DNA of 55,768 nt. Source: a bacterium. GTDB lineage: Bacteria; UBA9089; CG2-30-40-21. Positions 1 through 55,768 of the stretch are shown piece after piece. The notes under the pieces are model-generated. The model saw only the letters and a list, made by a program, of their open reading frames with translations, ran no database searches and had not been told where the DNA came from. The stretch is from contig JAHIZN010000456.1 in the NCBI GenBank assembly GCA_018814245.1, forward strand, positions 1 through 55,768. Reading direction: 5' to 3'. The translations under genes and the position numbers were made by a program. Numbering within the stretch: position 1 is the first letter of the stretch; each line of letters begins with the position of its first letter.

Positions 1-3000
1 CCATACCCGCTGCCGCTTATGGTAACAATTGTACCAACCGTACCGGCTGTTGGCATGACACTGTATACTTCCGGCAGGATACAGAAGGTACCCGTTGCAA
101 CCGCTGTTGTACTACTTGCCGTAACAAGTGTTTCACCATAGCCCTGCATATCAACCGTAAATGTCGTGCTGAATGAGCCATTGTTACTGGCAAATGTTTG
201 TCTGATGCTGTTGTTTGTCCCAAAGGCTATGGTTACACTATCACTGTCCGCATAGCCGGTACCAGTCACAGTCACCACTGTGCCAACCGTACCACTGCCC
301 GGCATCACGCTGACAACCTGTGGTTGAATAACAAACAAATTGCCTGCCGCAGCCTTTGCACCATTCGCCGTAATGGTTGTCGTACCATACCGCTGTGTAT
401 CAACTGTAAACGCTGCGACAAACGACCCGTCCGTGTTTGCCGATACTATCTGAATGTTGGCATTTATCCCAAGGCTAACGGTTATGGTCTCGCTTGCTGC
501 ATAACCCGTACCAGCCACAGTAACCACTGTTCCTACCGTACCAAATTCCGGCACCACACTGGTAACCTCAGGCAGAACAAAGAATCGTGCCTCTGCCATT
601 GAATCGTCAACAGCCGCTACGGTTGTTGTCCCATAGGGTTGGGCACCTGCCACAAAGCTCGTACTAAACAGACCAGTATCATTGCTGAGACAAGTAGCCA
701 CACTCCTGACAGCACCAAAGTGGATGGTGATAAGATCCATGCTGCCAAACCCAAGACCATTTACCTCAACCGTTATTCCTATGGTACCGGAAGAGGGTGA
801 AATTATTACCCCGCCAATGATCTCAAACACATTCTGAGCAGATGAGGACTGCATACTAAAGGCATTGATTGTTGTCCTGCCAACTGTCTGCGTATCCACG
901 GTAAATACTGCCTCAAAATATCCCTTACCATCTGCAACAGCTAACTGAATATTAGCATTAGTTCCAAAACCTATTATTATTGCATCTGTTGCTGCATACC
1001 CTGTGCCCTTAATGGTCACCATTGTGCCGACTACACCTGAAGATGGTCGTACAGAGAAAACATCAGGATTGATAAAGAGGCTATTTGTTGCTGCCTCTAA
1101 CGATGTTCCCCTTGCTGTAATAAGTGTACTGCCAAAGCTCTGAGTATCAATTGTAAACACAGTGGTAAACGATCCATTTATACCTGCTGTTGCTGATTGA
1201 ATGCTTTCATTTGTCCCAAACGCAACAGACACTGCATCGACTGATACATAGCCTGTGCCGCTGATTGTTACCACCATACCAACCGTACCTGTTGTTGGTG
1301 TTACGCTATACACCTCAGGCAGGATGCGGAATATATTAATCGCCAAGCTCACACCGCTTGCAGTAATGGTTGTTGTCCCAAACACTTGTGTATCAATTGT
1401 AAATGTTGTAGAGAACCAGCCACAAGTATCAGCCGCTGCTGTCTGGATGGCAGCATTTGTTCCAAAGCCTACGGTTACCCCATCATTCGCTGCATAACCA
1501 TTACCATCAACGGTTACTATTGTCCCCACGCTGCCCGATGGAGGCATAATGCTGTACACCGCGGGCAGGATACGGAAGATATTTGTTGCCGCACTTACAC
1601 CGCTTACGGTAATGGTTGTCGTTCCAAACGATTGAGTATCAACCGTAAATGTAGTGGCAAATGATCCATTTATACCTGCCGCTGCCATTTGGATGTTGGT
1701 ATTTATCCCAAAGGCTATTGTTATACTATCATTTACAGCATAACCAGTACCTGCCACGGTCACCACCATCCCAACCGTACCAGTTGTCGGCATCACACTG
1801 ACAACCGCAGGCTCGATGAAGAATGTATTCCTGGCTGTGGTTGAAAGGGTACCCCTTGCCCTTATGGTTGTTGTCCCAAACGCTTGCGTATCCACCACAA
1901 AGGAGGCAGCAAATAAACCATTTATATCAGCATAAACCGATGAGGTAATATTGGTATTATTTCCAAACTCAAAGGACATCGGGTCATATTTCCCATAACC
2001 AGAACCATTGATTGTTACCTTGGTTCCAACCGTACCACTGGTTGGTGTAACGCTATAAACCTCTGGAATAATCATAAACAAATTCAGACTGGCCTCAGAG
2101 CTTACACCCGTGGCTGTGATCGTCTTTGTTCCATAAACCTGTGTATCCACAGTAAAGTCTAAGCTAAAGAACCCGCTTGCATTTGCAGTTATTGCAGCCA
2201 TGCCGGGTTTATTACCAAAGGCAACTATTATGGCATCACTCACCGCATATCCAGCACCAGCAATGCTTACCATGGTACCTACAGAGCCGATTGATGGTGA
2301 AACCATGAACAGGCTTGCCCTGACAATAAAGCGATTGGCTGATGATGAGATACCACTGGCAGTAATGGTTGTGGTCCCATACCTCTGGGTATCGATCGTA
2401 AATGTGGTACTGAATGATCCATACGAACCTGCTGCTGCTGTCTGTATAGTGGCATTATTCCCAAACGCTATCGTAATATTGTCACTTGCAGCATAACCTG
2501 TACCGGATATGGTCACCACTGTGCCTACTGTCCCTGTTGTTGGTGACACACTGACCACCTGCGGCAGAATAACAAACACATTGCCTGCCACAGCTACAGC
2601 ACCGCTGGCAGTAATCGTGGTTGTACCAAACACTTGAGTATCAATCGTAAAGGTTGTGGTAAACGATCCCCTGCTGCTTGCTGTTGCCTGCTTAATGCTC
2701 GAATTCAATCCAAAGGCAATGGTCACGGTATCACTCGATGCATACCCTGTGCCGGATATGGTCACTATCGTACCTACCGTAGCAGCCGTTGGTGTTACCC
2801 GCCAGATTTGCGGCTTGATAAAGAATGTTGTCGCTACATTAGTAACACCGGTTGCCTTCACCGTGGTTGTACCATATCCTTGAGTGTTGACCACAAACGC
2901 CGCACTAAATACCCCGTCAGCACTGCATGTTACGGTAGTAATACCAGTGGTCAAACCAAGGTCAATCCTTACCACATCATTTGCACCAAACCCTGAGCCA

Positions 3001-10200: not shown

Positions 10201-13200
10201 ATAAATGGTCTGGTCATGGTCACATTACTTTGTTTACCAGTAGCCCTGACGGTTGTAGAGCCACAGGATTGTACATCTATCGTAAATGTCGTACTAAATG
10301 CACCCTGATCCGTAGCCTTATTATTGGTATCAGACACAATCCCAATTGATGTTCCAAAGTCTATTCTGACACCCTCAAGACCACCATAACCACGACCCTC
10401 GACCACTACCTGACACCCAACCGTACCCATAGATGGTTCAATCTTTGTAATCTCGCCCTCAATATAGAATGGCACCTTAACTATCAGACCCTGATTATCT
10501 GCTTCTGACACAGTCACAAAGATATTTCCACCAGGCTGAGGTTCTGCATCATCAATCATAGCCGTAAATGTACCAAGCATTGATGTGTATGGGCTAAAAC
10601 CTGTATTCGGATCAACACCCCTCCACACATGACTGCCAAGATCTACCTCAATCAAAACAGTATCTGGATACACACTGTAACCATTCAGCGATGGCTCCCA
10701 ACCATCACCATTGATAATGATCGGCGTACCAATTGTACCCCGGGTTGGACTTATCGAGTATACCCTTGGAGTAAGCTTGAACCAGTCAATATCCATACGG
10801 TTGGATGTCTGACCTGTAGCAGTAATGGTCTTGCTACCATAGAATTGTGGATCACTAATGGTAAAGGTTGTAGAGAATTTGCCATTACCATCTGTCATGG
10901 GCTTGTTGATATTAATTGCTGTACCAAGGTCAATCTGAACATACTCGCTTGCATAATAACCTGCACCTTGCACGGTTACCACTGTACTCACTGGTCCTGA
11001 TGTCGGCTTGACCATGGTAATACCTGTAATAATAAAGAGCTGGTCATCCTTATCCCATGTATCTGTATCCTTTGCCCAAACAGTTATGCTGCCAGAGGCT
11101 TGAGTATCAACAAGGAAGGCAATACTAAAGCTGCCATTAATATCAGTATTACCGCCAGTTATTTCCAATGATGCACCAAAATCTATAACAATCAACTGCT
11201 CTCCACTAAACCCATTACCAAATACAGTAATCATAGCCCCAACCGTAGCTGAGTATGGAGAGATATAGGTAATAGCACCACGGATAAAGAAGCCTGTATC
11301 TGCCGGACACTTTGTTACCTGACCAGTACCCGTAATGGATTTATCCCCATAGACCTGCGTGTTTATGGTAAAGGTTGTACTGAATGTCCCTGACCAATCT
11401 GTGGTTACAAACCTGACAGATGGTGTAGTGCCAAAATCAATCCTTACCCTTTCATACAACCCATATCCAGTACCCTTAATGGTCACAATTGTTCCCACGG
11501 TTGCTGAAGTCGGCGTTACCCAGACCATCTGCGGGGTGATAAAGAACCTGTTTTCGGCTGCATGATTAGTATTTACACCAACTGCCTTGACGGTCTTTGT
11601 CCCATATACCTGAGTATCTATGGTGAATGTTGCTACAAATGTTCCTATATCTGAAGACTGCCCTGATGTAATATTGCTTGTTATGCCAAAGCTGACATTT
11701 ACGGTCTCATTTGCACCATATCCAGTACCGCTGATATTAACAGGTGTACCAACCGTACCTGTCGTTGGCACTACACTTACCACCTCTGGTGTAATACAGA
11801 ATACATTAACCGCTGAGGTTACACCACTGGCAATAATTGTTGTTGTGCCATACACTTGAGTATCAACTATAAAGCCGGCTGCAAATGAGCCATAATTGCC
11901 TACAACTGTGGTGGTTATGCTGACATTAGTACCAAACGCCACAGTAATAACATCGCTTGTCATATAACCGGTACCGCTAATAGTTACCATCGTGCCAACT
12001 GTGCCGGTTGAAGGCATCACACTAACAACCTGTGGTAAGATGCAGAAGCTATTGGTCGCTGAGCTTATACCGCTGGCTGTAATTGTAGTAGTTCCATAGG
12101 TTTGTGTATCAACCGTAAATATTGTGGTAAATGAGCCATATTGACCGGCAACTGTCGCATGGATGTTAACATTGGTACCAAAGGCAATATTCACAACATC
12201 ACCCGTTGCATAGCCTGTACCTGAAATCGTCACCACCGTGCCAACCGTGCCTGCTTGCGGCATTACGCTGACGACCTGCGGCAGAATGCAGAACACATTG
12301 ACCGCTGAGCTTACACCACTGACCGTAATGGTTGTCGTCCCATATTGCTGGACATCAACCGTAAACGCTGTGGTGAATGATCCATACTGCCCGGCGGACG
12401 CTTGCTGAATGCTGGCATTGGTGCCAAGGGCAATGTTCACAACATCATCCGCGCCGTAGCCTGTGCCTGAAATCGTAACATTTGTGCCAATCGTGCCTGC
12501 TTGCGGCATTACACTGACGACCTGCGGCTGAATACAGAACACATTAACCGCTGAGCTTACACCACTGACCGTAATGGTTGTCGTCCCATATTGCTGGACA
12601 TCAACCGTAAACGCTGTGGTGAATGATCCATGCTGACAGGCGGACGCTTGCTGAATGTTGGCATTGGTACCAAAGGCAATGTTCACAGCATCACCCGCGC
12701 CGTAGCCTGTGCCTGAAATCGTAACATTCGTACCAACCGTGCCTGCTTGCGGCATTACGCTGACGACCTGCGGCAGAATGCAGAACACATTAACCGCTGA
12801 GCTTACACCGCTGACAATAATGGTTGTCGTCCCATATTGCTGGACATCAACCGTAAACACTGTGGTGAATGATCCATGCTGACCGGCAATTGCTGTCTGA
12901 ATGTTGACATTGGTTCCAAAGGCAACAGTCACAGCATCACTTGCTGCATAACCATTGCCGCGAATGGTCACCACCGTACCAACCGTACCGGTTAAAGGTG
13001 ATACGCTGATCACCTGTGGCGAGATACAGAATATATTGACCGCTGAACCTACACCAGCAGCAATAATGGTTGTTGTACCAAATCGCTGAACATCAACCGT
13101 AAAGTTGGTGGTAAATGAACCCTGCTGGCTGGCAACTGTTGTGGCTCGGCTAATATTGGTGCCAAATGACACCTTAATATTATCATTAGCTGCATATCCG

Positions 13201-16200
13201 TTGCCGCTAATCGTTACCATCGTACCAACCGTGCCAATTGAAGGCTGAACGCTTACAACCTGAGGTGCGATGCAGAAGCTATTGACCGCTGAGCTTATAC
13301 CTCTGGCTGTAATGGTAGTTGTACCGTATCGTTGCATATCAACCGTAAATGAAGCTGTAAATGAGCCGTACTCATCGGCAACTGTGTTAGCTATGCTGAC
13401 ATTAGTACCAAACGCCACAGCAATACTATCCATTTCTGCATAACCTGTACCTTGAATGGTTATATTCATACCAATCGTACCAACTGAAGGCCGAACACTT
13501 ACAACCTGCGGCGTGATGAAAAATGTATTGACAGCCAAACCTGAACCACTAACAATAATGCTTGTTGTGCCATACGCCTGAGTATTAACCGTAAAGCTGG
13601 TTGTAAATGTCCCATCACTTCCGGCAATACCTGTGGCAATACTCTCTGTTCCGCCAAAGGAAACCTGTACAGACTCTCCTTGCCCATAGCCTGTACAACT
13701 AATCGTAACGATGCTGCCTACCGTACCCTGAGACGGTACAACACTTACCACCTCTGGCTCTATCCTGAACCATATTTGTGGTGACAGATTTGTTGTCTGT
13801 CCAATAGCAGTAATGGTCGTTGACCCAAACGATTGTGTATCAATATTAAATGTTGTTGAGAATATCCCCTCAGATGATGCTTGCGTCTCTGCTATCTCAG
13901 ATGTATGCCCAAGGTTTAATTTTATTATCTCCTCACTGCCAAACCCATTACCCTCTACGGTTACTGTTGTTCCAACCGTTCCATGTTCTGGTACAACGCT
14001 GGTAATCTTTGCCCCAACACCAAATACCCGGGTATATGGATGTTGTGTAATTACACCAGCAGCCGTAACCATCACGGTCAACACAGACTGCGGATTGGTA
14101 GTAAACACTGCGGTAAATGTACCCATTGCTGTGGACTGAGCAAGGACTATACTCTTGGTTGTACCAAAATCTATTCCTATATTCTCAAGCCCACCATAAC
14201 CATTACCCGTTATTGTTACGAATGTCCCAACCGTACCCTCTGTTGGGGTAATATCAATAGCTGTAATAATCTTAAACTCCTTGAAGCTGTTGATATAGTT
14301 ACCCGCATTCCTGCTTGTGGCAACCACACTCGTTGTCCCAAAACTTTGAGTATTCACGGTAAATATTGTTGTAAAGGTACCCTGACCGCTTGCCACAACC
14401 GTTGTCATGGTATTTGTAATACCAAGGCTGATTCGTACCGTATTTGTCCCGCCATACCCAGTGCCGCTAATGGTTACCAGACTGCCAACCGTACCGGTTG
14501 TCGGTATCACGCTGACAACATTTGGCAGGATGCGGAATATATTTGTTGCCACGCTCACACCACTTGCAATAATGGTTGTTGTACCATAGCGTTGTGTGTC
14601 AATTGTAAAGCTGCTGGTAAATGAGCCATAGTTACCGGCAACTGCCTGCTGAATACTAACATTGGTGCCAAAGGCAATGGTAACAACATCACCTGAGCCA
14701 TACCCTGTGCCTGAAATCATTACTATTGTGCCAACCGTGCCAGCTGTTGGCATCACGCTGATTACCTGCGGCAGGATGCGGAACACATTCGTGGCAACAC
14801 TTACACCGCTTGCCACAATCGTTGTTGTGCCAAACGCCTGAACATCAACCGTAAAGCTGCTGCTAAATGAGCCATCTATGCTCGCTGCTGCTGTCTGGAT
14901 ATTGGACTTGGTGCCAAAGGCAACAGTCACTACATCGCCCGATGCATAACCTGTGCCTGAAATTATTACTATTGTACCCACCGTGCCAGCTGTTGGCATC
15001 ACGCTCACAACCTGTGGCTGAATGCAGAATACATTCCTTGCCACACTCACACCACTTGATGTAATGGTTGTTGTCCCAAACGCCTGAACATCAACCGTAA
15101 ACGCTGTTGTAAATGAGCCCTGTTGACTGGCAACCGTTGTTTGGATGCTGGCATTAGTACCAAAGGCAACGCTCACAGCATCCCCCTCGCCGTAGCCTGT
15201 GCCTTCAATTGTTATCACTGTACCAACGCTTCCCTGTGCTGGTGTAACACTGAATACCTGCGGCAGAATGTGGAAGACATTGACCGCTGAGCTTACACCA
15301 CTTGATGTAATGGTTGTCGTTCCATACCGTTGGACATCAACCGTAAAGTTGGCAGTGAATGACCCCTGCTGACTGGCAACTGCTGTCTGGATGCTCGCAT
15401 TGGTACCAAAGGCAATGGTCACAGCATCACCTGCTGAATAACCTGTGCCTGAAATCGTTACCACTGTACCAACGCTTCCCTGTGGAGGCATTACGCTGAC
15501 AAGCTGTGGCTCTATTCGGAATACCTTCATCGGCTGTTGATTACTCTCCAGACCACAAGCTGTTACGGTCGTTGTCCCATAGATTTGAGTATTCACTGTA
15601 AACACTGCCGAGAATGTACCGGCAAGAGCTGCTTGTACCTGAGTTATACTCATGGTAGAACCAAGATCTATCCTGACCATTTCCTCGCCGCCAAACCCAT
15701 CACCAATAACAGTAACCAATGTCCCAACCGTTCCATGATCAGGTACAATGCTTGCAATCTTGGCACTTACCCCAAACAATCTTTGATACGGATACTGTGT
15801 GTTTAATCCTGTGGCTACAACTATTGACATCCCTGCCCGCTGTGGATTGCTCATAAATACTGTTGTAAATGTTCCCATAGCAGAGGTATGAGCAATAACA
15901 ACACTCTTTGTTGTTCCAAAGTCAATCTTTACATCCTCATCTGAGCCATAACCATCTCCGTTTACAACTACATATGTACCTACTGTACCCTCGCTGGGTG
16001 TGATGTAGATGGCTGTCGTAATCCTGAACCTATTGTATTGAGTAACCGGCATACCAGATTGATCCCTGCTGACAACGCTGGTAGCTGTTATACTTGTTGT
16101 CCCAAAGCTTTGCGTATCAACAGTAAACATAGCCGCAATCGTACCATTTTCAGATGTCTGTCCAATAACTATGCTTAATGTCTTGCCAAAGTCAATCCGT

Positions 16201-19200
16201 ACAACCTCACTTGCCCCATAACCACTGCATGTTACGCTAACCATTGTCCCAACTGTCCCGGAGATGGGTGTAATGCTCACCACCTCTGGCATGATATAGA
16301 ATGTGTTATCCGCTGCATGTTGTGTGACAATACCTGTTGCCCTTATGGTTGTTGTAGCATACCGTTGTGTATCAACTGTGAACATCACAGTAAATGTACC
16401 ATCACTGCCTGCCACACCAGTAGCAATGCTATCAGTCTTGCCAAACCCAATCTGCACAGCCTCACCTGAGCCATAACCACTGCATCTTATGATCACAAAT
16501 GTCCCTACCGTACCAAGGGATGGTGTTACGCTGATTACCTCTGGGGTAATATAGAAGATATTCTCTGCTACGGCACTGCTGTCCAAGCCTGTGCCGGTAA
16601 TGCTCTTAGTACCATAATGCTGTACATCTACCACAAATACGGTCGTAAATGTACCATCCTTATCTGTCATTCCAATTATCATGCTTTGAGTCTTGCCAAA
16701 GTCAACCCTGACACTTTCTAATCCTGCATACCCACTGCAGGAAATAGTCACATATGTCCCTACTGTACCAAGGGATGGCTTGATGCTAATTATTTGCGGT
16801 ATAATACAGAATGTTCTTGTTGTCAGATATTGCGTCTGTAATCCCTGGGCAGTGATGGTCTTTGTCCCATACCGCTGGGTGTCAACCGTAAACACCAAGC
16901 TATATGTGCCATTGTTGCTTGAAGTGCCAGAAACCCTGCCAACTGTCAGCCCAAAGTCCACATTTATGGCTTCACTGACACCATAACCACTGCCAATCAT
17001 GGTCACAAATGTCCCAACGCTGCCCCTGTCAGGGACAACGCTTACTATCTCTGGTATAATATAGAATGTTGTGCTCCTTGCATCCCTTGTTGTCATGCCC
17101 TCAACCACAATTGTTCTGGTGGCATAGCTCTGAGTATCAATCGTAAACACTACGGTAAATGTTCCATCCTCGCTGGCAAGTGGGGTGGCTATGCTGGATG
17201 TTTGTCCAAAATCAACCCATACAATCTCGCCTGAGCCATAGCCTGTGCAAGCAACTGTCACAAATGTCCCGACGCTGCCCATTGTCGGTGTCATGCTCAC
17301 TATTTCAGGCAGAATAAAGAGCGTGTTGGTCGCTGGATGCAGACTATTTACACCCTCAACCACAACTGTCTTGGTTGCATAGCCTTGTGTATCAATTGTA
17401 AACACTACGGTGAATGTCCCATCCCCGCTTGCCGCACCAGCTGCTATACTCACGGCATTGCCAAGATCAAGACGCAATGCCTCACTTTCGCCATAGCCTG
17501 TACCGCTAACTGTAACAGGTGTACCAACGCTGCCACTTGTTGGTACTACACTTACTACCTGCGGGGTAATATAGACGCTGCTATCTATCGGGTACCTGCT
17601 GGTTACACCAATAACAGTCAGTGTCTGTGTCCCATATCTCTGTGAATCAATGGTAAAGGTAGTGGTAAATGTTCCGCTGCTGCTTGCCATAACTTTGATA
17701 ATATCCACTGTCTTGCCAAGTGTCAGGCTTACTTCCTCACCAGCACCATAACCATCACACCCTACGGTGACAATAGTTCCTACTGTACCCATGATTGGTG
17801 TTACGCCAAGTATCTTTGGTGTAATATAGAATGTATTCTCTGCCTGAGCCTTGCTTGTCACACCCTGAGCAACAATACTCTGTGTTCCATAACCCTGCTT
17901 ATCAATCGTAAAGCTTGTGGTAAATGTTCCGTCAACACTGGCTGTAGCAGCAACTATAGTTATTGTTTTGCCAAAGTCAATCCGTACTCGCTCACCTGAA
18001 CCATATCCACTGCAGGTAATGGTAACATCTGTTCCAACCGTACCGATATTGGGTACAACACTGATTATTTCTGGAATAATACAATATGTCTTGGTTAGCC
18101 TATATCTGGTCTCAACACCCTCAACCGTTATGGTCTTTGTCCCATATCTCTGGATATCAACGGTAAAGGTGACGCTGAATGTTCCGTCGCTGCTTGTCAA
18201 TGGCTGCAGGAGATTTACTGTCTGACCAAAGTCAATCTGTGCCTTCTCGCCTGCACCATAGCCGCTGCCAACTACAGTCACGATACAACCAACAGTCCCT
18301 CTGATTGGTGTTACGCTGACTATTTCTGAAACAATGCAGTAATCATTAGAAAGTACCTGACCGGTTGTCAGCCCTGTTACCACTACTGACTTTGTTCCAT
18401 AAGTTTGAGTGTCAACGGTGAACACTATTGTAAATGTACCATCAATACCGGCACTGCTCACTACAATATTTGCAGTCTTGCCAAAGTCAACCTTTACCTG
18501 CTCACCTGTTCCATAACCAGTACAATCCACTGTTACTCTTGTCCCAACGCTGCCCTTATTCGGTGTCAGGCTTACTATCGCCGGCAGGATAAAGAACCTG
18601 CTTGTAGATACCTGTCCACTGACCACACCGATAGCTGACACGCTGGTTGTCCCATAAGCCTGTGAATCAATTGTAAATGTTGTTGTAAACAACCCTAATG
18701 CACTTGCCTGTATATCGGTAATGGTCATTGTCTTGCCAAGAGTTATTCGAACAAGCTCACTATCATCATAACCGCTGCCATTTGCCGTGACTATTGTTCC
18801 AATTGTGCCAGCCTCTGGTGAGATGAACAAGCCGCTGACAATGGTAAAGTGTTCATACGCCTTCTCACCAAACTCAACACCGCAAGCAACAATTGTCTTG
18901 TCCCCTGTTGGCTGCTTGTCAACCGTAAACACTGCTGTAAATGCACCCCATCTGCTTGCTGTCACCGTGGTAATGGTTGTTGTCTGCCCAAACCCAACCC
19001 TCACCTGTTCGCTTAAGCCATAACCATTGCCAGTGATGGTTATACTGGTGGTAACAATCCCTGACCTTGGGACAATGGAGGTGATGTTTGGCTCGATATG
19101 GAAGTACTTCCTGTCCATCTCACCACTGCTTGCACCTGTAGCCACAATGCTTGTTGTGCCATAGGGCTGGACATCAATGGTCAAACTGGCTGTAAATGCC

Positions 19201-20663
19201 CCGGCATAACTGCTCATGGTTGTTGTCATGGAACTAATCTCGCCCAGACCTATCCTCACAGCCTCACTTTCTCCATAACCGTCACCAGCTACTGTTACAA
19301 GTGTCCCCACTGTACCAGATGTTGGTGTTACATTCACAATATGGGAGTAAATAATCACTATCCTTTGATTTGTCTCACCACTCCTTACACCAGTTACAAT
19401 TACAGTAGTTGTGCCAGCTGGTTGGACATTAACCGTAAAGGTTGCCTCAAAATACCCTGTGGACATTGTGGTTACCGTACCAATCGGTTTTGTCCAGCCA
19501 AAGTCAAGCCTCACCTGCTCACTTGAACCATAACCTGTGCCAGCAACACTAATCATTGTCCCAACCGTTGCCCTTATTGGTGTTATCCTGATAATCTCAC
19601 TGTAGATAACCATGCTGTCTGCGTCAAACCCAAAACTATCATTGGCAACAATACTTGCTGTCCCTGCCGGCTGTGTGTTCACCGTAAAGGTTGTTGAGAA
19701 TGAACCAGTCACATCTGTACTTGTATTATTGATCCCCTGTGTTGTCCCAAGGTCAACCCTTATTGGACAATTCCCCACAAACCCATTGCCCTTCAGGATA
19801 ATCATTGTCCCAACCGTTGCCCTTGTTGGTGTTACAAGCGTAATCTCCGGCACAATCACAAAGCCCTTAAGATCAACCTCATTGGTATTTAAGCCTGTGG
19901 CAATAATGGTAGTCATTCCTCTTGGCTGTGTATTAACCACAAATGTCGCTGCAAATGTACCAAATTCTGTTGTTTCAATACTGCCAATGGATGCTGTTAT
20001 CCCAAAGCCTATCTGTACAACCTCTCCTGCCCCATACCCATCACCATGAATACTAACCGTACTCCCAACCGTACCAGATGTTGGCACTGGCTGATATATC
20101 TTGGCATCAATATAGAATTGCTTATAAGCCTCTACCACTGTATCCCTGACCGTTACGGTTGTTGTTCCTGACACTTGGGTATCAACCACAAACATGGCTG
20201 TAAATGTTCCATAAGCTGTCGGTGCAATTGGTCCCTGAACATTCGGGCTTAGACCAAAATCAATCCAGAGATCATCATTATCCGGCATACCAGATGCCTT
20301 AATTGTTACTGGTGTACCTACTGTGCCTGTTGTTGGAGTAATTGCGACCACCTCAGGCAGTATCATCAAATAGCCAATACCCTTTTCAGGTGTCGCAGTA
20401 CCAACACCAGTAATCGTTCTGATGCCATAAGCCTGCTCATCAACAATAAAGGTTACCACAAATGAGCCGTCTGCATTACTGCTTGTCCCGGCAATCGATT
20501 GATTTGTCCCAAAGATGATATTAATGCTATCATTTGCCGCAAATCCATCACCATCAATGGTAATTACTGTCCCTACTGTTGCTGCCTCTGGTGTTACCCA
20601 TGCAATATGTGGAAGGATAACAAACGATGTTGACAGCGAGACACCAGATGGTATGCTTGTTAC
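1..20663 (-). CDS. Literal open segment 2 of the giant gene (C-proximal part). It has 6,887 codons from just after TAA (complement of 20664-20666) to the left window edge. No stop is reached, so the 3' end lies outside the window.
   Basis: The main frame resumes the repeat register at 20639 (SLSTSFVILPHIAWVTPEAATVGTVITIDGDGF...). It was verified at every F-x-V-D and G-x-V-G motif down to position 36. The first in-frame GTG is at about 20459 and the first ATG at about 20370, where a gene caller might place an artificial start. Confidence 0.8.
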
Positions 20664-38600: not shown

Positions 38601-41600
38601 AAAGATGGTCGTAAATTCACCAAGGTTATTGCTTCCAGGAGAACTTATAGAATCATTTGCTCCAAGTTTGATATTTATTGTTTCTGCAGAGGCATAGCCA
38701 TTGCCATAAACCGTTACCTTAGATCCAACACTCCCTTGTGTTGGTATAACTGAAACCACATTGCTATTGATAAAGAATCTATTAAATGTCTCCTGAGACG
38801 ACTCGCCAAACCCCTTAACCCTTATGGTTGTTGTCCCGCAACTTTGAGTATTAATGGTAAATATAGACTCAAAGTGACCATTTGCTCCGGCAGAGATAGA
38901 GGTAATTTCATCATTAAATGTACCAAAGTAAACCCGAATAAGCTCAGTATCGCTATAACCACCACCCGTTATAGTTACTATCGTTCCTACACTGCCAATG
39001 GACGGTGTCACCATGGCTGTATCACCTATTATCTTGCAGTACCCCAAAACAGCTGGTGTAGCATTTCCGCTAACTAATACAGCCTTTGTCCCATAGTTTT
39101 GGGTATCAATGGTAAAGGTGACCATAAATGAGCCGTTACTTACGGTATCGCCAACCGGTATTGTACCTCCATTACCAAATCGTACATAAACTACATCAGG
39201 ATAAACAAAACCATTCCCCCAAACCGTAATAACTTTGCCAACCGTACCAAATGTTGGGGAAATATCAGTCACTGCAGCCCGAATATTAAACACACCACTC
39301 TTTATCATGCCGCTATTTATTCCAATAGCAGATAAAACCCTGTTGCTAAACGGCTGAGTATCAGCCGTAAAGGTTGCTGAGAATGAGCCATAAATACTAC
39401 TTGTCGCCATAGTAATGGTCGGCGTTGTTCCAAGACTAATACGAATACGCTCAACACTGCCATAGCCGCAACCCTCAATAATTACCCATGTCCCTACCGT
39501 ACCATTTGTAGGCGTAATCAATGTCAAGCCAGTCTCAACCTTGAAATATCCCCTGCTTTCCTGATTAGATACAGGACCTGCTACTGTAATAGTTGTTGTC
39601 CCGGCTGGTTGTGTTGTCACTACAAAGGATGTATTATACTTACCCACACCATCAACTACAGCATGGGCAATTGTTTTGGTAAACCCAAAATGAACTTTCG
39701 CTATTTCACCAGAACCATAACCATCACCATTAACCGTTATCCTTGTCCCGACGGTTCCGCTTGAAGGATTAACAGACAATACCCTGCCCTTGATGATAAA
39801 GATATTCTGAGCAGTATGAGGATTATTCGTTGACCCCCATTTACCATCAGCAGTAATGGTTGTTGTTCCGCCCGGTTGAGTATTAACAACAAAGGTTGAG
39901 GTAAGTGTTCCGGCTGCGGATGCATAGTATGTCGGTCCATGATTTGCATTACCAAATGCATTCCAGATAGGCTCATTGGGTGCATACCCATCAGTCCATA
40001 TAGTAACAACCGTCCCTACACTGCCCTCAGTTGGCAATACCTTTAAGATTCTTTGTATTAGCTTGAAGGTAAGGGATGAGGCTGCAGCCGTCACCAACCC
40101 ATATGCTGTCACTGTCTTGGAGCCTTGAGAGGCCATATCCCATGCTTGAGTATCAACAGTAAAGGTAACTATAAATAATCCAGCCTCGTTTGCCTTGCAG
40201 GTAGCAATAGTCTTGGTTGAACCATAAGAGATACGGATGGTCTCACTTGCCCCATATCCAGCACCCATCATCATTACCTCTGTTCCAATGGCTCCTGAAT
40301 TTGGGGTAATCGTAGTCGCATCAACCGTAATAATAAACCGAACACTATCACTCCCGTTTGAGGTCAAGCCATATGCCCTGACATTAGTAAAGCCATACAC
40401 CTGTGGATTTACAGTAAAGCTTACACTGAATGTGCCGTCCTGCGTTGTCTCAATATTGGTAATACTCTGTGTTGTACCAAAATCAATCTGTATTGTCTCA
40501 TTTCCGCCATAGCCATTACCCTCAATCGTAACCCATGTACCAACCGTTCCCACAGTCGGCGAAAGAAGGGTGATATGGGCATAGATGCGGCATTCATTCC
40601 CTGCCTGCTCATTTGATGTTATCCCTCTGGCAAGGATGGTAGTTGTCCCCAAGCTTTGAGTATCAATGGTAAAGGCCGTACTGAATGCACCATATATATT
40701 TGTACTTGTCTGGACAATCGTTGCTGTCTTGCCAAAGTCAATCCCTATATCCTCTCCTGCACCAAACCCATCACCACACAGGCTGACAATTGTACCCACT
40801 GAGCCGGAATTCGGTGTTACTGACCATATCCTTGGCCTGATATTGAAGTAAATCATATCCTGCTCGCCTGTAGTTAAGCCGGTAACCAATACCGTTGTTG
40901 TTCCCTGTCTTTGAGTATCAATGGTAAATGTGGTTGAGAATGAGCCGTTTGCGCTGGCATTGGTTACAGTGATTGATCTTATTGTCCCAAAGTCAATCCT
41001 GAGTACTTCATTTGCACCAAAACCATTTGCCTCAAGTGTAACAATCATCCCCACGGTACCCGTATCTGGTGACAGGGTAATTATCTCTTGTGTAATCTTT
41101 AATCTATTGATTGAAACTGTACCAGAATCAAGGCCAGTAGCAAGAATGGTTGTTGTCCCATAGCTCTGAGTATCAATGGTAAATATGGACTCAAAATAAC
41201 CACAGGCATCTGTGGTCACCACAGAGATAGTTGTGTTTTGTCCAAGAGAGATTCTTACACCCTCAGTTGCCTTATAACCATCACCGATAACCGTAACAAA
41301 TGCCCCTACCGTACCAGTGATTGGCGAAACCGATGGAATAGCCGGATTAATGGTTATATAGCCAACATCCTCCTTGCCGGTAGATACCCCAACAACTCTG
41401 ATTGTAGTACTACCAAGCTGCTGCCTGTCAATGGTAAAGGTGGTGCTGAATGTACCCTCGCTTGATGCTTGCGCAATGGCTCTTGATGGTGTTGTCCCAA
41501 AGATAACATTAATGGTCTCTCCGCTGCCATAGCCATTGGAATAAATAGAGATAAGCGTACCAACCGTGCCCTTATTCGGCGTTATCAGCGATAGCTTGGT

Positions 41601-44600
41601 GATAATTATATAGGTATTTTCTGACAGAACACCTGTATTTGTCCCTGTTGCCCGAATGGTTGTTGTCCCATAGGGTTGTGTATCAACGGTAAATGTGGCT
41701 GTAAATGAACCCTTGATGTCGGTCTTTGCCCGGGTCATATCAAAATACTTACCAAAATCAACCACAATCCCTTCAGAGACACCATACCCATTACCAATAA
41801 CCGTCACGGTAGATCCAACCGTACCGCCGAACGGAATAACGAATGGAATGCTTGGCTCAATACGGATTTGCTGGCTCGCTGTCAGCTTGGAGTCAAGCCC
41901 GGTAGCCAGAATGGTTGTTGTGCCATAGGGCTGGGTGTCAATGGTAAAGGTAACGCTAAAGGTGCCGCCAACCCATAAATCATTCGCTGGTACTTGAGTA
42001 ACACCGCTTGTGGTTACCGTGGTTATGGTTCCATTTGTCCCGAAATTAATCCTCACGCTTTCTGTTGCATAATACCCGTTACCCTCAAGGCTGATGGTTG
42101 TACCAACCGTACCATGGGTTGGGGTACAGACAATAATCCTGGGAATGATAAAGAAGGTGGATGTGTCTCGTTGACCGGGATAGCCCTTGCTTCGGGCAAG
42201 GATGGTTGTTGTCCCGGCTGGACGGACACCTGTGGTAAAGTAAATCACAAATGTGCCCCTCAGGCTGTCTGTTGTAACAAGCTTATCGGTTTCACCCTCT
42301 GTGCTTACCTCTGTGGTACCAAAATACACCTTTAACTCATCATTGGCATAATATCCATTACCTCGCAACTCTATTTGTGTCCCTACCGTACCAAACGACG
42401 GTGAAACTAAGATAATCCTTGGTTCAACCTTGAATATGTTATAATTAATCTCTTTACTATCCATACCGCTGACCGTAATGGTATGCGATCCATAGGGTTG
42501 GGTATCAATAGTAAACACTTTGGTAAATGAGCCATTTGTTGAGGCATTGGTAGTTGTCAGGGTTGGATTCATCCCATACCCAATAACCACCAATTCCCCG
42601 CTTCCATAGCCATCAGCCTTGATGGTTACTACTGTCCCTACAGAACCCTCTCTCGGCGAATAGTAGATGATATTTGACTTGATAATAAAGAACTCTGAGA
42701 AGGTTGATGATGCTCCAATGTCTACGCCAGTAGCCATAACAGTGGTTGTTCCAAACGCCTGCACATCAACCGTAACCGGTACCACAAACGAGCCCGCAGC
42801 ATCTGTTACTGTAGTCGCAGCGGTTGGACTCTTGCCAAAGGTGATATGGATATTACCAGACGGATTATACCCATTACCTTCAACCGTAACCACCGCACCA
42901 ACTGTTCCGTATGGTGGAATAACATGTGTCAGTTTGACACCAATAAAGAAGTTGGAAATAGTGCCAACACCAGAGGTAAGTCCTGTCACCACAAGAGTCG
43001 TGGTACCATAAGGCTGTGGATCGGCATTAAACCAGCCGTCAAATGTACCTACATTCGTTGCATTCCATGTGGTTGCTGCACTCATACTAGTACCAAAATC
43101 AAGCTTAACCCTCTCACCATTACCATAACCAGTACCAACAACATAAACCGGTGTGCCTATTATACCACTACTTGGTGAAACAAGGATAATCTTGGGCATA
43201 ACACGGCAATAACCATAGTATTCGGCACCAGATTGCAAGCCATGGGCAGTGATGGTCTTTGTCCCGGTAAACTGGGTATCAATGGTAAACGAAGCACTAA
43301 ATGATCCCATTGGGCTGGCAAAGGTTGTAGTGATACTCCCTGTTGTTCCAAACCCTATACGAATAGGCTCGCCAGCATCATAGCCTGTACCGGCAATCAT
43401 AATGGTTGCCCCAACCGAGCCAAAGGTTGGGAATACACCAGTAATCTCGCGTTTGATGATAACAATAGCATCTGTTGATGTCCCACTGTTCAAGCCAGTA
43501 CAGATAACGGTTGTTGTACCTATGGGCTGGGTATCAATAGTAAATGTGCCGATGAATGTACCGCAAATATCTGTATGATTAGTATTGATTGTCTTGGTTT
43601 GACCAAAATCAACCCTGATATCCTCATCTGCATCATAGCCGGTACCCCATACGGTTATAATCCTTCCAACCGTACCATCTGTTGGTTGTACCCAGATATT
43701 AGGATTAATGATAAATATCATGGTAAACTGGGCAAGCACCACTGCCCCATGAGCAGTAATTGATGTTGGACCAACAGGCTGCTGATTGATGGTAAACTGA
43801 GTAATAAACACACCATCAGGTGTTGCTGTCCCTGAAATCATAGGATATGTTGTCCCAAATCTGACATTAACCATCTTGCTCCAACCATAACCCGTACATG
43901 TCAGATATACCGTACTCCCTACCGTACCTGCTGTAGGTGTAATTATCAAATTCTCAGTCATCTTGAACATGATGGTGCCCGATGCACCAGACTCAACACC
44001 ATGAGCCAGCACAACCACATCACCCCATGGCTGAGATGTAGCTGTAAAGTTAGCCGCAAAGACACCATTTGGCATAGCTGTAGCCGTGGTTACGGTTTTA
44101 TCATCCCCAAAGTCAACACAAACAATCTCATCTGCTTGATAACCTGTACCCTCAAGATGGATGAGCATCCCTACGGTTCCAGCCGTTGGGGATATGGATG
44201 TTACCCCTGTAGTGATATAGAATGTATCATTATCAGATGTCAATGAGGTAAGCCCTGTGGCAACAATGGTTGTAATGCCAACCGGCTGGGTATCTACCGT
44301 AAACATGGCCGTAAACACACCATGTATATTGGCTGAAACCAGGGTAATAGATGCGGTGTTCCCAAAGTCTATTTGGACAACCTCATCTGTTCCAAAGCCA
44401 TTACCATTTACCATAACTATGGTCCTTGCCACTGGCCCTGATGGTGGATCTACTTTGACAATATGCCCGATAACCTTAAGGAAATTCATTGCCTGCTGTG
44501 GATTGTCACCCCAACTGCGAGCCAGAACCGTACTTGTACCCGCTGGCTGAGTTGGTATATTAAAGGTAGTCACAAAGGCACCATCTGCATCAGTATTTAT

Positions 44601-53600: not shown

Positions 53601-55768
53601 CTCAATGGTTGTTGTCCCTGAAATCTGTGTATTGATTAGGAAGCTGGCACTGAATGTTCCACCATATGCCTTGATTGGTGATGGGTTAGTTGTAATAATA
53701 CCAAGTATCCCCAGATTGATACTGATTGATTCTGCCTCAGAATATCCATCACCCCAAATCGTTATCCTTGTTCCAACGGTACCTGTTGTTGGTGATACCT
53801 GCCATAGTCTGGCTACAAGCTTGAGCAGCCTTGAATCGCTCCTGCCTGAATCAAGCCCTGCTGCTATCACGGATCTTGTTCCATAGGTTTGGGTGTCAAT
53901 CGTAAATGTTGTGGTAAATGAGCCATTTGCATCTGTTGTTGTCTCACCTATGACTGTGGTCATGGTTGTTCTGTTCCCATAGCTTATCTTAATAGTTTCA
54001 CTTGCTCCATATCCATTGCCGCTGATGGTTATCTGTGTGGTTACTGAGCCAATGGTTGGGGTCATATTTGTTATCACTGATGATATATTGAATACATCCT
54101 CAAATACACGACCGCTTGTCAGCCCTGTTGCCATGACTGTCTTTGTGCCGTAGACCTGCAGATCAACAGTAAAGCTGGAGGTAAATAAACCGCTGTCATT
54201 TGTTGTGACTGTGGTGATTGTCGCATTATTCCCAAATGTTATGTGTATATCCTCATTTAGCCCAAACCCATTGCCATTGACAGTTACCATCGTTCCCACT
54301 ATCCCGCTCTTTGGTGTGTAGTTGTAGAAGTTGGGCAGTATGGATAGTGTTCCCTTAGCATTAGTTGTGTCATCATAGGCTGTGATGGTTGTTATCCCAC
54401 AGATTTGTGTATCTATTGTAAATATAGCGGTGAATGAGCCGTTTGCTTCTGCTGTGGTTGTGGTTATGGCTGTATTTGTACCAAGCTCTATCCTGATACC
54501 CAAGCCTGTCCCAAACCCATTGCCTCGAACAGTTACTATTGTTCCCACACTGCCGGTGTTGGGTAGGATGGAGATGATGTTGGGCAGGATCTGGTATGTT
54601 CGCTCAACATTCCTTAAGCTGACATTACCTATGGCTGCTGCAGTTACTACTCCATAACTCTGCGTATCTACCGTAAATGTTGTGCTGAATGAGCCTTCGC
54701 TTGAGGCACTGGTTGTCCTGATGCTTGTATTGCTTCCAAACTTGATCCTTACCAACTCGCTGTCACCATATCCGTCACCGGCTATGCTTACCATGGATCC
54801 CACTGTTCCGGAAACAGGGGTAAATGCAATTATCTGTGGATCAATGACAAACACATTAGCAGCTGAGGTTACACCTGATGCTGTAATGGTTGTTGTACCA
54901 CATGGTTGGGTATTGACAATAAATATGGTGGATAATGTCCCCATGCTGTTTGTGGTGGCATAGGTTATGCTTGCATTCCTGCCAAACCCTATGGTAACAC
55001 TCTCACCTGCTGCAAAGCCATCTATCCAGATGGTAACAACCGTCCCCACAGGTCCCTTGACTGGTGAAACAAGAGTCATCTTGGGCAGGATGAAGAATGG
55101 TCGACTAACCACCTTATCAGATACATCCAATCCTGTTATGGTTATGGTTGTAGTGCCATAGGGCTGCTGATTAACGGTAAACCCAACAACAAATGAACCA
55201 TTTGTTCCAGCCAAAATATTAGGCCATGCGGTAGAACCAAACCCAACAGCAAGTAACTCTGTAGAACCATACCCATTACCACTAACAGTTACAAGTGTTC
55301 CTACTGTGCCCATGCTTGGTGTAACGCTATACACATTTGCCAGTATCGTAAATACTCCTCCGGCTGTACACGGCTGTATTCCGTTATACGCCGTTACGCT
55401 GGTTGTCCCAAAGGCTTGCGTGTCTACAGTAAATACTGCGGTAAACGAGCCGTTATTTGCTGATGTGATTGTGGTTATGGTTGCATTTCCGCCAAACGCC
55501 ATTCGTATCGCATGGCTTGTCCCAAACCCATTGCCTTGAATGGTTACCATTGTGCCAACGCTGCCCTCTGTGGGCGAGATGGCGATGATGTTTGGTGTGA
55601 TACAGTATGTAAATGTTCCTGCCTCTATGCTGTTGTTGTCATCATAGGCAGTGATGGTCTTTGTCCCATAGCTTTGGGTGTCAATGATAAAGGCTGCGGT
55701 AAATGAGCCGTTTACTGCTGAGGTTGTCCATGTTATGGTTGAATTGTTGCCGAATTTCACCCTGATGG
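1..55768 (-). CDS. Giant tandem-repeat protein made of about 218 IPT/TIG-like (Ig-fold) modules. Internal fragment, partial at both ends. Conceptual translation is 18,588 codons once one +1/-1 indel pair near 20.6-20.9 kb is corrected.
   Basis: Complement strand translated by hand. Representative unit complement(29745..29990) = GYAASDVVTVAFGTNATIQTVVASQQGSFTTSFTVDVQRYGTTTITASGVSSAVNVFNILPQVVSVVPPTGTVGTVVTIIGT. The F-x-V-D type motif (plus-strand atc-aac-cgt-aaa and variants) occurs 218 times. Its spacing is 246-297 nt and always a multiple of 3, except around 20.6-20.9 kb. The G-T-V-G-T motif (plus tgt-acc-aac-cgt-acc and variants) occurs once per module. In every module but one, both motifs have codons starting at plus positions divisible by 3. 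The phase is the same at both window edges (right edge IRVKFGNNSTITW..., left edge ...TIVTISGSGYG). No gene start or stop was seen. The family call rests on motif resemblance to IPT/TIG domains, not on a database search. Confidence 0.85.
5100..5590 (-). repeat. Two-unit island of the homogenised 246-nt family, embedded in diverged modules.
   Basis: F-x-V-D motifs at 5155, 5401 and 5647 are spaced exactly 246 nt. Positions 5341-5430 are about 89% identical by eye to 31055-31144, which lies 26 kb away in the largest array. Confidence 0.65.
11600..13760 (-). repeat. Array A: nine F-x-V-D motifs spaced exactly 246 nt (82 aa), made of homogenised tandem units. Boundaries are good to about 100 nt.
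   Basis: Motifs at 11617, 11863, 12109, 12355, 12601, 12847, 13093, 13339 and 13585. Unit 12241-12486 versus 12487-12732 shows about 15 mismatches in 246 nt. The 85-nt run 12301-12385 is repeated exactly at 12547-12631. Confidence 0.85.
13760..14300 (-). repeat. Spacer cassette copy 1: two atypical 85-aa modules following array A.
   Basis: Translation: ...IITAIDITPTEGTVGTFVTITGNGYGGLENIGIDFGTTKSIVLAQSTAMGTFTAVFTTNPQSVLTVMVTAAGVITQHPYTRVFGVGAKITSVVPEHGTVGTTVTVEGNGFGSEEIIKLNLGHTSEIAETQASSEGIFSTTFNID... It is colinear with copy 2 at 15540-16120. Confidence 0.7.
14300..15530 (-). repeat. Array B: five F-x-V-D motifs spaced exactly 246 nt, same family as arrays A and C.
   Basis: Motifs at 14353, 14599, 14845, 15091 and 15337. 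A 47-nt exact match (15438-15484 = 31215-31261) links it to array C. Confidence 0.8.
15540..16120 (-). repeat. Spacer cassette copy 2, homologous to 13760-14300.
   Basis: Translation: ...RITTAIYITPSEGTVGTYVVVNGDGYGSDEDVKIDFGTTKSVVIAHTSAMGTFTTVFMSNPQRAGMSIVVATGLNTQYPYQRLFGVSAKIASIVPDHGTVGTLVTVIGDGFGGEEMVRIDLGSTMSITQVQAALAGTFSAVFTVN... It has the same order and the same unusual F-x-x-N-P-Q and FGV-x-AKI-x-S-x-VP-x-HGTVGT features as copy 1. Confidence 0.7.
16120..18800 (-). repeat. Array E: eleven F-x-V-D motifs spaced exactly 255 nt (85 aa). This subfamily has F-Y-I-x-P-E-V/I-x-S-V-T-P linkers and a Cys two residues before G-Y-G.
   Basis: Motifs at 16117, 16372, 16627, 16882, 17137, 17392, 17647, 17902, 18157, 18412 and 18667. 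Examples: TFYIMPEVVSITPISGTVGTMVSVTCSGYG, NIFYITPEVISVTPSLGTVGTFVIIRCSGYG, FYITPKILGVTPIMGTVGTIVTVGCDGYG, YCIIPEIISVVPNIGTVGTDVTITCSGYG, FFILPAIVSLTPNKGSVGTRVTVDCTGYG. Confidence 0.75.
20594..20950 (-). other. Frame-displaced repeat module. It forms a 118-codon ORF in the adjacent frame (TTG at 20950-20948 to TAA at 20596-20594). Positions 20639-20938 encode a fully normal IPT/TIG-like module.
   Basis: Hand translation in the frame with codon starts equal to 2 mod 3: (M)IHKPIGQTVITALGLNSNQSATNSFTIMPLIGVTPGAGTVGQVAMVWGTGYPSGEVIIVDFGTTGTITQVFSGDNGSFAAPFVINTQVYGTTTVKVTSIPSGARCQHRLLSFHILHG*. All family motifs are present (P..GTVG, GTGY, FG, GSF, F-V-I-N-T-Q-V-Y-G-T-T-T). The ORF is bounded upstream by TGA (complement of 20951-20953). 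It is not listed in the supplied ORF track. Confidence 0.8.
20784..55768 (-). CDS. Literal open segment 1 of the giant gene (N-proximal part). It has 11,660 sense codons from the right window edge to an in-frame TGA (complement of 20784-20786). The 5' end lies outside the window.
   Basis: Main frame checked at every module motif from 55681 down to 20947. After the extra base at about 20939 the main frame reads ANRADSNYCSGSKFKSVSNKQLYHYAFDWCNTWCRNSRTGGHGLGHWLSIW and then stops. An automated gene caller would probably end a CDS here. Confidence 0.8.
29100..32780 (-). repeat. Array C: fifteen F-x-V-D motifs spaced exactly 246 nt. This is the largest and most homogenised tandem array in the window.
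   Basis: Motifs run from 29146 to 32590 in steps of exactly 246. Positions 29656-29810 versus 29902-30056 show 2 mismatches in 155 nt. The 92-nt run 32008-32099 is repeated exactly at 32254-32345. Confidence 0.85.

Follow-up and report, generated by a model that had tools for sequence, protein, structure and literature searches.

The DNA analysed here, henceforth the window, comprises 55,768 nucleotides (nt) of the bacterial contig JAHIZN010000456.1 (assembly GCA_018814245.1) and is an internal fragment of a giant gene of the Candidatus Desantisbacteria lineage, which is under purifying selection and codes for a tandem array of a single type of immunoglobulin-like (Ig-like) module. The minus strand reads through 18,588 codons in one frame (reverse-complement offset 2) without a stop, while the remaining five frames contain 485-1,696 stops each; the GC skew is negative over the full plus strand, which is what a single long gene on the minus strand should produce. 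An earlier reading of these letters, made without database searches and termed here the original prediction, left the strand unstated; the coding frame proves to be a single minus-strand frame extending over the whole window. The encoded segment of 18,588 amino acids (aa) has a mass of 1,926 kDa, close to the 2 MDa anticipated, a pI of 4.7 and a net charge of -413. Its composition (T 16.6, G 12.0, V 10.6, I 9.0, S 8.7 and A 7.0%, with D+E+K+R together at 10.6%) likewise bears out the earlier impression of a sequence dominated by these six residues and poor in charged ones. The organism is placed in the Desantisbacteria lineage because of the matches, detailed below, to the metagenome-assembled genome (MAG) Yes70-11, to an ENA metagenome contig and to fragments of Desantisbacteria MAGs.

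A hidden Markov model (HMM) built from 70 seed modules of the window tiles the translation completely with 219 matches, namely 217 complete modules and one truncated module at each window end (Table 1), all variations on the pattern '...SVxPxxGTVGTxVTIxGxGYGxxExVxIxFG...GxFxxxFT[VI]DTQxYGTTTIxAxG...'. The score exceeds 55 bits in 213 of the 217 complete modules and is 45.7 bits in the lowest-scoring complete module; in module 176, which has 104 aa, the model matches over its positions 1-30 only (16.5 bits). The commonest length is 85 aa (90 modules), followed by 86-96 aa (54), 83-84 aa (38) and 82 aa (33), with single modules of 81 and 104 aa, and the mean module of 85.29 aa corresponds to 255.9 nt. 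Module envelopes are nowhere more than 7 aa apart, the sole apparent gap, of 67 aa, being the inside of module 176, which carries insertions (aa 14996-15099). The original prediction had counted 218 recurrences of an F-x-V-D type motif, with a mean spacing of about 256 nt and none wider than 297 nt. Its count and mean agree with the HMM tiling. The strict F-x-V-D occurs only 92 times and a looser F-x-[VI]-[DN] 201 times where the HMM recovers all modules, and the upper limit fails at module 176, whose 312 nt are the longest period of the array. The statement that the window holds nothing but modules stands: one module type was found, and no enzymatic, transmembrane, RTX or other foreign domain was detected within the array. 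Specifically, the window translation contains no transmembrane-like segment (scanned as 19-mers) and no RTX nonapeptide in 18,588 aa (GGxGxD motif count 0), its N-glycosylation sequons are not enriched (174 against 197±12 expected), and the window DNA has no match to an Rfam family and no tRNA. Four plus-strand open reading frames of 152-230 aa (13983-14624, 36258-36950, 49950-50468 and 52782-53240) lie antisense to the giant frame, and nothing suggests that they are genes.

To model the fold, AlphaFold2 was given modules 55-57 with an alignment of 150 three-module segments from the window. It returned three all-beta units in a row, each of seven strands and devoid of helices, with a predicted local distance difference test score (pLDDT) of 97.2 and a predicted template modelling score of 0.86; a single module likewise gave seven strands at a pLDDT of 92.3. 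The HMM segmentation and the modelling of two to three consecutive modules, both put forward by the original prediction as checks on its Ig-like or IPT/TIG assignment, thus yielded a complete tiling and three successive Ig-like sandwiches. Foldseek searches with the three-module model recovered domains BIg50-52 of the Salmonella adhesin SiiE (2yn5, 2yn3; E=1e-7), the archaeal S-layer protein 7ptp (E=1.1e-7), alpha-2-macroglobulin MG domains, DSCAM, Bap and the repeat region of the ice-binding adhesin MpIBP, whose structures 4p99 and 4kdv turned up among the fold matches. The single module gave TM-scores of 0.61-0.62 to domain D of cyclodextrin glucanotransferase (CGTase; root mean square deviation 3.2-3.4), 0.61 to the Sec5 IPT domain, 0.64 to Bacteroides SGBP-B and 0.55-0.71 to the neocarzinostatin family, all query-normalised and with weak E-values of 3e-3 to 0.09. 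Going by these models, the modules are Ig-like beta-sandwiches.

Within this fold IPT/TIG is the best available label. The Pfam TIG profile (PF01833) scores 59.9 bits in the first 743 aa, against a cut-off of 20.9, and 163.9 bits in the first 4,650 aa, so that the N-terminal modules lie above the cut-off, and the signal is weak for most modules. Pfam hmmscan recovered no family in the other three of the four 4,650-aa pieces (minus strand, 3-13916, 13917-27866 and 27867-41816), which we read as a filter or sensitivity problem and not as absent homology because smaller pieces do match TIG. Membership extends transitively to all modules, since they are mutually homologous by our HMM. When the module profile was compared with PDB sequences, its best match was again the TIG domain D of CGTase, weak at E=0.0012 and confined to the 'PxxGxVGxxVTIxGxGFG' strand pair; the profile of the three-module alignment matched no PDB sequence, and NCBIfam gave no match on the window pieces. 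These blanks in Pfam and NCBIfam mean that automatic annotation will label the gene 'hypothetical protein', as has happened in Desantisbacteria MAGs. The module consensus, SVTPTSGTVGTVVTISGNGYG, has an invariant P12 and at least 90% conservation of G15, V17, G18 and G27, and displays the N-terminal strand signature of TIG domains, P-x-x-G-x-x-G-[GT]-x-[VI]-T-[VI]-x-G-x-[GN]-F. What sets the modules apart is the F-T-[VI]-D-T-Q motif (for example in the module at 41103-41357, minus strand), in which Gln64 is 98% and Asp62 75% conserved though the modules share only about 40% identity; in more distant TIG arrays position 62 is Pro and the Gln is missing. This supports a divergent TIG subfamily with D62-x-Q64 as its hallmark. 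The only conserved acidic columns are D62 and E32 (65%), and the module columns include no conserved acidic calcium-binding cluster or junction. No His (maximum 5%), Lys (maximum 16%) or Cys column is conserved beside Gln64, and a canonical ester or isopeptide bond involving this residue was rejected for want of such a His or Lys; Thr is abundant, and ester-bond domains appear only as weak fold matches (E=0.03-0.05). Gln64 could instead cap a loop, contact the neighbouring module or form a non-canonical cross-link.

The modules are strongly diverged from one another. Pairwise identity among the 217 averages 40% (maximum 92%) and synonymous sites are saturated among most of them, the proportion of synonymous differences (pS) being 0.70. 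Outside a subfamily that we call A, adjacent modules are exactly as similar as distant ones (39.9% in both cases), and neither super-repeats nor block duplications were found, mean identity being about 0.40-0.45 at lags of 1-12 modules with no diagonal run longer than three modules. The A subfamily, of about 38-51 modules with 82-84 aa, forms three arrays and is otherwise scattered through the C-terminal part of the window (Table 1). Only A arrays are seen by Tandem Repeats Finder at the DNA level, as 246-nt arrays at 29346-32523, 11979-13596, 14485-15528 and 5126-5657. Such 246-nt arrays had been described earlier as homogenised; the arrays are there, but homogenised they are not, since in modules 90-102 nucleotide identity ranges from 66 to 89%, with a mean pS of 0.49 and a proportion of nonsynonymous differences of 0.16, and the longest exact DNA repeat of the window is 92 nt. 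Only a few pairs, among them modules 100 and 101 (pS 0.18), arose after the divergence from the nearest sequenced relative (pS 0.43).

This relative was uncovered by a scan of GTDB species representatives and is the MAG 'bacterium isolate Yes70-11'. Three stretches sampled from its two longest contigs, JASEHA010000001.1 and JASEHA010000002.1 (12.9, 21.7 and 19.2 kb), are each fully open in one frame and consist of modules only, and two blocks are collinear with the window module by module (Table 1). Orthologous modules share 70-93% aa identity, against about 50% for the second-best, paralogous match. Over 101 orthologous pairs (8,635 codons) dS is 0.64, dN 0.144 and dN/dS 0.225, with no pair above 0.51; even the 18 columns most variable among paralogs are 62.5% identical between orthologs. 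Because each module thus retains a one-to-one ortholog in another species, at a dN/dS of about 0.22, the array is ancient and not recently amplified, and in this respect it is closer to titin than to the many bacterial adhesins whose repeats arose by recent amplification. The only structural difference between the two orthologs lies in the array of modules 90-102, where the 13 modules of the window correspond to three in Yes70-11 (modules 41-43 of the sampled stretch L002), a difference of 2,460 nt that reflects either a real change in copy number or a collapse in the relative's short-read assembly. The break between the Yes70-11 contigs also appears to fall inside an A array, that matching window modules 157-171.

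Further evidence comes from an independently assembled ENA metagenome contig (ERZ928008, k127_350250), which is 99.76% identical to the window over about 3 kb, and from 2-4 kb contigs of Candidatus Desantisbacteria MAGs (locus-tag prefixes AAB296, AAB267, COZ71, COZ13 and HY793) that match specific window positions at 65-85% identity and are annotated 'hypothetical protein, partial'. Among 5.8 billion proteins, the first 849 aa had no match above 70% identity. Taken together, orthology, selection, the independent contig and the MAG fragments exclude an assembly chimera and a pseudogene, and on this comparative evidence the gene is real and under purifying selection. The ENA contig carries about 50 nt of unrelated sequence at each end (L011 1-56 and 3025-3074), which create a false start and a false stop and are probably chimeric ends left by a short-read assembler. 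Four scaffolds of the lineage (L005, L006, L007 and L013) are TIG array throughout, and what divides the array into two 'genes' is nothing more than stretches of N or a 4-nt overlap resembling a frameshift error. The gene counts of Desantisbacteria MAGs are in consequence too high, because fragments of one or a few giant genes are counted separately.

Yes70-11 also indicates how far the gene reaches past the window. The 12.9-kb stretch sampled from it (L003) has 49 full modules that have no ortholog in the window and which, from the geometry of the contigs, would lie about 5-18 kb N-terminal of the window's N-terminal end; another stretch (L001) continues for 10 kb, or 43 modules, past the C-terminal end. 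Both extensions are tiled by Desantisbacteria fragments of 65-85% identity. Window and ortholog combined amount to a composite of about 26,200 aa in at least 309 modules, both termini lying beyond the sampled sequence; filling the unsampled interval of about 5 kb would bring it to about 27,900 aa, and if both Yes70-11 contigs are coding throughout, the gene would approach 90 kb. A terminus search with the outermost parts of the ortholog (the end of L001 and the start of L003) recovered internal orthologous fragments only.

Table 1. Features of the window (positions on the plus strand; modules numbered from the N-terminal end)
Feature	Position	Strand	Basis
Stop-free frame, internal fragment of the giant gene, open at both window ends	3..55766	-	six-frame stop count; dN/dS 0.22 against ortholog
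Truncated module, C-terminal two thirds, aa 1-53	55608..55766	-	HMM positions 34-80
217 complete IPT/TIG-like Ig-fold modules, aa 54-18560, head to tail, linkers of at most 7 aa	87..55607	-	HMM and structure models
Truncated module, first 28 residues	3..86	-	HMM positions 1-28
Modules 55-57, three successive beta-sandwiches in the model	40848..41612	-	AlphaFold2
Modules 90-102, 13 A modules of 82 aa, 81-92% aa identity to nearest neighbour, 66-89% nt identity	29331..32528	-	module clustering, Tandem Repeats Finder
Modules 157-160, A array; the relative's assembly breaks here between two contigs	14538..15521	-	module clustering, Tandem Repeats Finder
Modules 165-171, A array	11802..13523	-	module clustering, Tandem Repeats Finder
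Module 176, longest (104 aa), TIG module with loop insertions, only period above 297 nt	10470..10781	-	HMM
Modules 196-217, C-terminal part of the window, many A modules (82-84 aa) among unique ones	87..5585	-	module clustering, Tandem Repeats Finder
Block collinear with JASEHA010000001.1, about 79% nt identity; modules 50-89 and 103-142 one-to-one	18980..43149	-	alignment to MAG Yes70-11
Block collinear with JASEHA010000002.1, about 78% nt identity; modules 184-216 orthologous (window 336-8630)	1708..8688	-	alignment to MAG Yes70-11
Stretch 99.76% identical to ENA metagenome contig ERZ928008, k127_350250	21274..24241	-	nt comparison

Clues to the export of the protein are provided by related arrays with visible ends, which were collected with, among other queries, the A-subfamily alignment as a metagenome query; they belong to the same D-x-Q subfamily and are paralogous or more distant, at 37-63% identity. 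The N-termini of P0041 and of the L009 gene consist of a typical Sec signal peptide followed at once by modules. In P0121 a signal peptide is followed by an NHL propeller, other domains and then 21 uninterrupted modules that run off the contig, and genes for a secretin and an S8 peptidase lie directly upstream (L012, 8475-9773 region). At the opposite end, the L008 gene passes from A-like modules through about 1,770 aa of an unannotated repeat to a C-terminal domain matched by FlgD_ig (PF13860, E=4e-4) and by the NCBIfam models for PorU and for T9SS (type IX secretion system)-dependent C-terminal regions (E=4.5e-9), and a gene for a PorV-like/UPF0164 outer-membrane barrel follows directly downstream (L008 8274-9260). 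P0046 ends in a 'YPNPF...GIYFY...KIGLIR' domain (PF13585, weak) and the shorter relatives P0029, P0037 and P0060 carry PF18962 or PF13585. The unannotated repeat is a second repeat unit of about 115 aa without a Pfam or NCBIfam match, of the form '...P.LSW.G..GY..DGV.P..G....F.F.V.Y.D......GYP.V.I......YSY.F.A.D..G..A.G.P....GP.V'; it is present in about 15 copies, separating the TIG array from the C-terminal sorting domain of the L008 gene (about 2800-7800) and near the N-terminus in P0121 (aa about 680-1160).

Based on these observations we propose that the window encodes the shaft, and the shaft alone, of a cell-surface fibre, an explanation to which we would assign a probability of roughly 65%. 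The protein would leave the cytoplasm by the Sec pathway through an N-terminal signal peptide, and a T9SS-type C-terminal domain would sort it to or through the outer membrane. Its tandem modules would form a long, thin, acidic rod, which may hold terminal functional domains far from the cell, as in an adhesin or a tether, or may itself be a long polyvalent surface. Tandem bacterial Ig-like domains such as those of SiiE and MpIBP rise by about 3.3-5 nm each, from which the rod of the window might measure about 0.7-1.1 micrometres and one of 309 or more modules over 1 micrometre. The freedom of the window from transmembrane-like segments and from any cytoplasmic-type domain also counts for an extracellular location. 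Sequence diversity between adjacent domains limits misfolding, a rule proposed for titin-like proteins, and the identity of about 40% between neighbours fits this rule; purifying selection on every module implies that the whole length matters. Several points weigh against the proposal. For the signal peptide, the anchor, the domain at the tip and the C-terminal sorting domain, it extrapolates from arrays that are paralogous or more distant; the confidence between modules in the AlphaFold2 model may be overstated, the three-module alignment being made of paralogous triples; PF01833 reaches E<=0.01 in only 19 of 150 three-module pieces, and the consensus module has no TIG match; and the open frame beyond the window pertains to the sampled stretches of Yes70-11, which exclude the roughly 5 kb between L003 and the window's N-terminal end and other unsampled parts.

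The main competitor of the surface-fibre shaft is a structural coat or sheath, in which many copies would run along or between cells as an S-layer-like or matrix lattice built through the modules themselves. The matches of the three-module model to the S-layer protein 7ptp and to Bap speak for such a role, extensive lateral contacts would fit with purifying selection that acts on all modules and extends to their variable surface columns, and the Thr-rich outer strands could pack together. S-layer proteins, however, are normally small and abundant, a lattice subunit of more than 26,000 aa would be costly, and related arrays bear propeller or other 'head' domains typical of adhesins; we consider this alternative unlikely. 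A giant adhesin of the RTX class exported by a type I secretion system (T1SS), as are LapA, SiiE and MpIBP, with the C-terminus leaving first and an N-terminal plug retaining the protein, would share the design of a giant tandem Ig-like rod, and SiiE and the MpIBP repeat region are indeed among the Foldseek matches. Nevertheless, the lack of any RTX nonapeptide and of a conserved acidic calcium-binding cluster, the TIG-like and not BIg nature of the modules (Big_6 matched weakly in 7 of 150 three-module pieces) and the Sec signals, T9SS-type C-terminal domains and PorV-like neighbour of the relatives make this route quite improbable.

Two further explanations question the gene or its secretion altogether. 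A decaying or non-functional relic, or else a titin-like scaffold that stays inside the cell, could be entertained because the gene is known here from sequence alone and because the positional conservation of its diverged modules resembles titin. Yet a dN/dS of 0.22 and the absence of stops exclude decay, and the signal peptides and outer-membrane sorting domains of related arrays speak against an intracellular scaffold, which leaves this pair of options with very little probability. Least probable of all is that the array is an assembly artefact in which reads from many shorter TIG-repeat genes were chained through shared repeats. It is true that relatives in short-read MAGs are shattered into contigs of 2-4 kb, that the relative's assembly breaks at A arrays and that the A-array copies number 13 in one assembly and three in the other. 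Against this, the modules average 40% aa identity and share no exact repeat beyond 92 nt, two independent assemblies agree in the order of their modules over 24 kb and 7 kb, a third is 99.76% identical over 3 kb, and a chimera would not hold one stop-free frame for 55.8 kb. The assembly risk is realistically confined to the copy number inside the A arrays.

The module count, which the original prediction had called exceptional, is so among the sets that could be searched. A profile search of a library of 1.84 billion representative proteins gave 8,772 matches at E<=1e-3, and among the best 150, from which module counts were taken, no protein had more than 72 modules (P0139, 7,284 aa). P0139 is a complete protein of a high-GC organism (L014 3718-25572), with about 70 distant TIG-like modules, C-terminal PKD domains and a transmembrane anchor preceded by a poly-Gly run. 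Neither this set nor that of 5.8 billion proteins, in which giants may be under-represented, yielded any protein of the size of this gene's product, and within these sets the array is among the longest made of a single domain. Size alone is no record, since the giant proteins reported from Omnitrophota (Archaeovorins, dockerin-type proteins and tandem-repeat scaffolds) attain 85,804 and 147,155 aa. As with the window gene, the bacteria concerned are uncultured and PVC-related, the giant genes are broken up in short-read MAGs, and a role at the cell surface has been proposed. Unlike the window, with one domain type and neither a transmembrane segment nor an enzyme in 18,588 aa, they are mosaics of many Pfam domains, HEAT and TPR repeats, enzymes, dockerin and TSP3 with tens to hundreds of transmembrane helices, and no Pfam domain occurs more than 41 times in their repeat scaffolds.

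The window gene also shares features with several better known systems without coinciding with any. Like SiiE of Salmonella enterica, a T1SS substrate of 5,559 aa with 53 BIg domains and calcium-binding junctions, it would form a giant rod of mutually diverged Ig-like domains, and SiiE structures are among its best fold matches; but its modules are TIG-like instead of BIg, they are four times as numerous in the window alone, and they have neither RTX nor acidic junction motifs. MpIBP of Marinomonas primoryensis, of 1.5 MDa, lifts its terminal ligand-binding domains off the cell on a comparable, very long extender of one repeated Ig-like module, but its roughly 120 BIg repeats are nearly identical copies, whereas the modules described here, at least 217 in the window and at least 309 in the composite, are only about 40% identical, have a pS of 0.70 and retain one-to-one orthologs. 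Titin, a eukaryotic intracellular protein with a kinase, a PEVK region and about 300 Ig and FN3 domains from spliced exons, offers a parallel in that hundreds of tandem beta-sandwich modules have dissimilar neighbours and each position is conserved between species; it has, however, two module types and is spliced, while the window gene is an uninterrupted prokaryotic reading frame with one. Known IPT/TIG proteins, such as CGTase (domain D), plexin, Met, Sec5 and fibrocystin, have from one to about 14 TIG domains; they share with the window modules the fold and the 'P-x-x-G-x-V-G-T-x-V-T-I-x-G-x-G-[FY]' signature, but this subfamily has its D-x-Q motif where more distant TIG arrays carry Pro, and most of its modules fall below Pfam detection. 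The C-terminal sorting domains of the window gene's relatives, encoded beside a PorV-like gene, recall T9SS-exported giants such as SprB of Flavobacterium johnsoniae (6,497 aa), which also form large repetitive surface filaments, from repeats that are not TIG modules. Our literature search turned up no publication that connects Desantisbacteria with giant genes or with TIG arrays.

Giant surface proteins of tandem Ig-like domains are a known design, which this gene takes to an extreme by the combination of one module type, at least 217 copies of it (at least 309 in the composite), the freedom from interspersed domains and the antiquity of the array. A bolder extension of the surface-fibre shaft, which we offer tentatively and regard as doubtful, is that the complete protein has about 27,000-30,000 aa or more, with over 300 consecutive TIG modules whose individual conservation goes back beyond the split of the Desantisbacteria lineages. 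In that case its homotypic array would be the longest known, and the protein might act as a position-coded tether or ruler of micrometre length in which each module surface is under a constraint of its own. If so, the fibre could determine how far these uncultured cells are held from a partner cell or a mineral surface, or how they make contact with it, and the Gln of the D-x-Q motif could stabilise the array by an inter-module lock or cross-link unseen in other TIG domains. For the Candidatus Desantisbacteria the present finding means that dozens of 'hypothetical protein, partial' entries on 2-4 kb contigs of their MAGs are pieces of one gene, the greater part of which escapes standard Pfam scans. 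The same gene lends itself naturally to testing how multidomain chains of such length are translated, exported and protected from misfolding.

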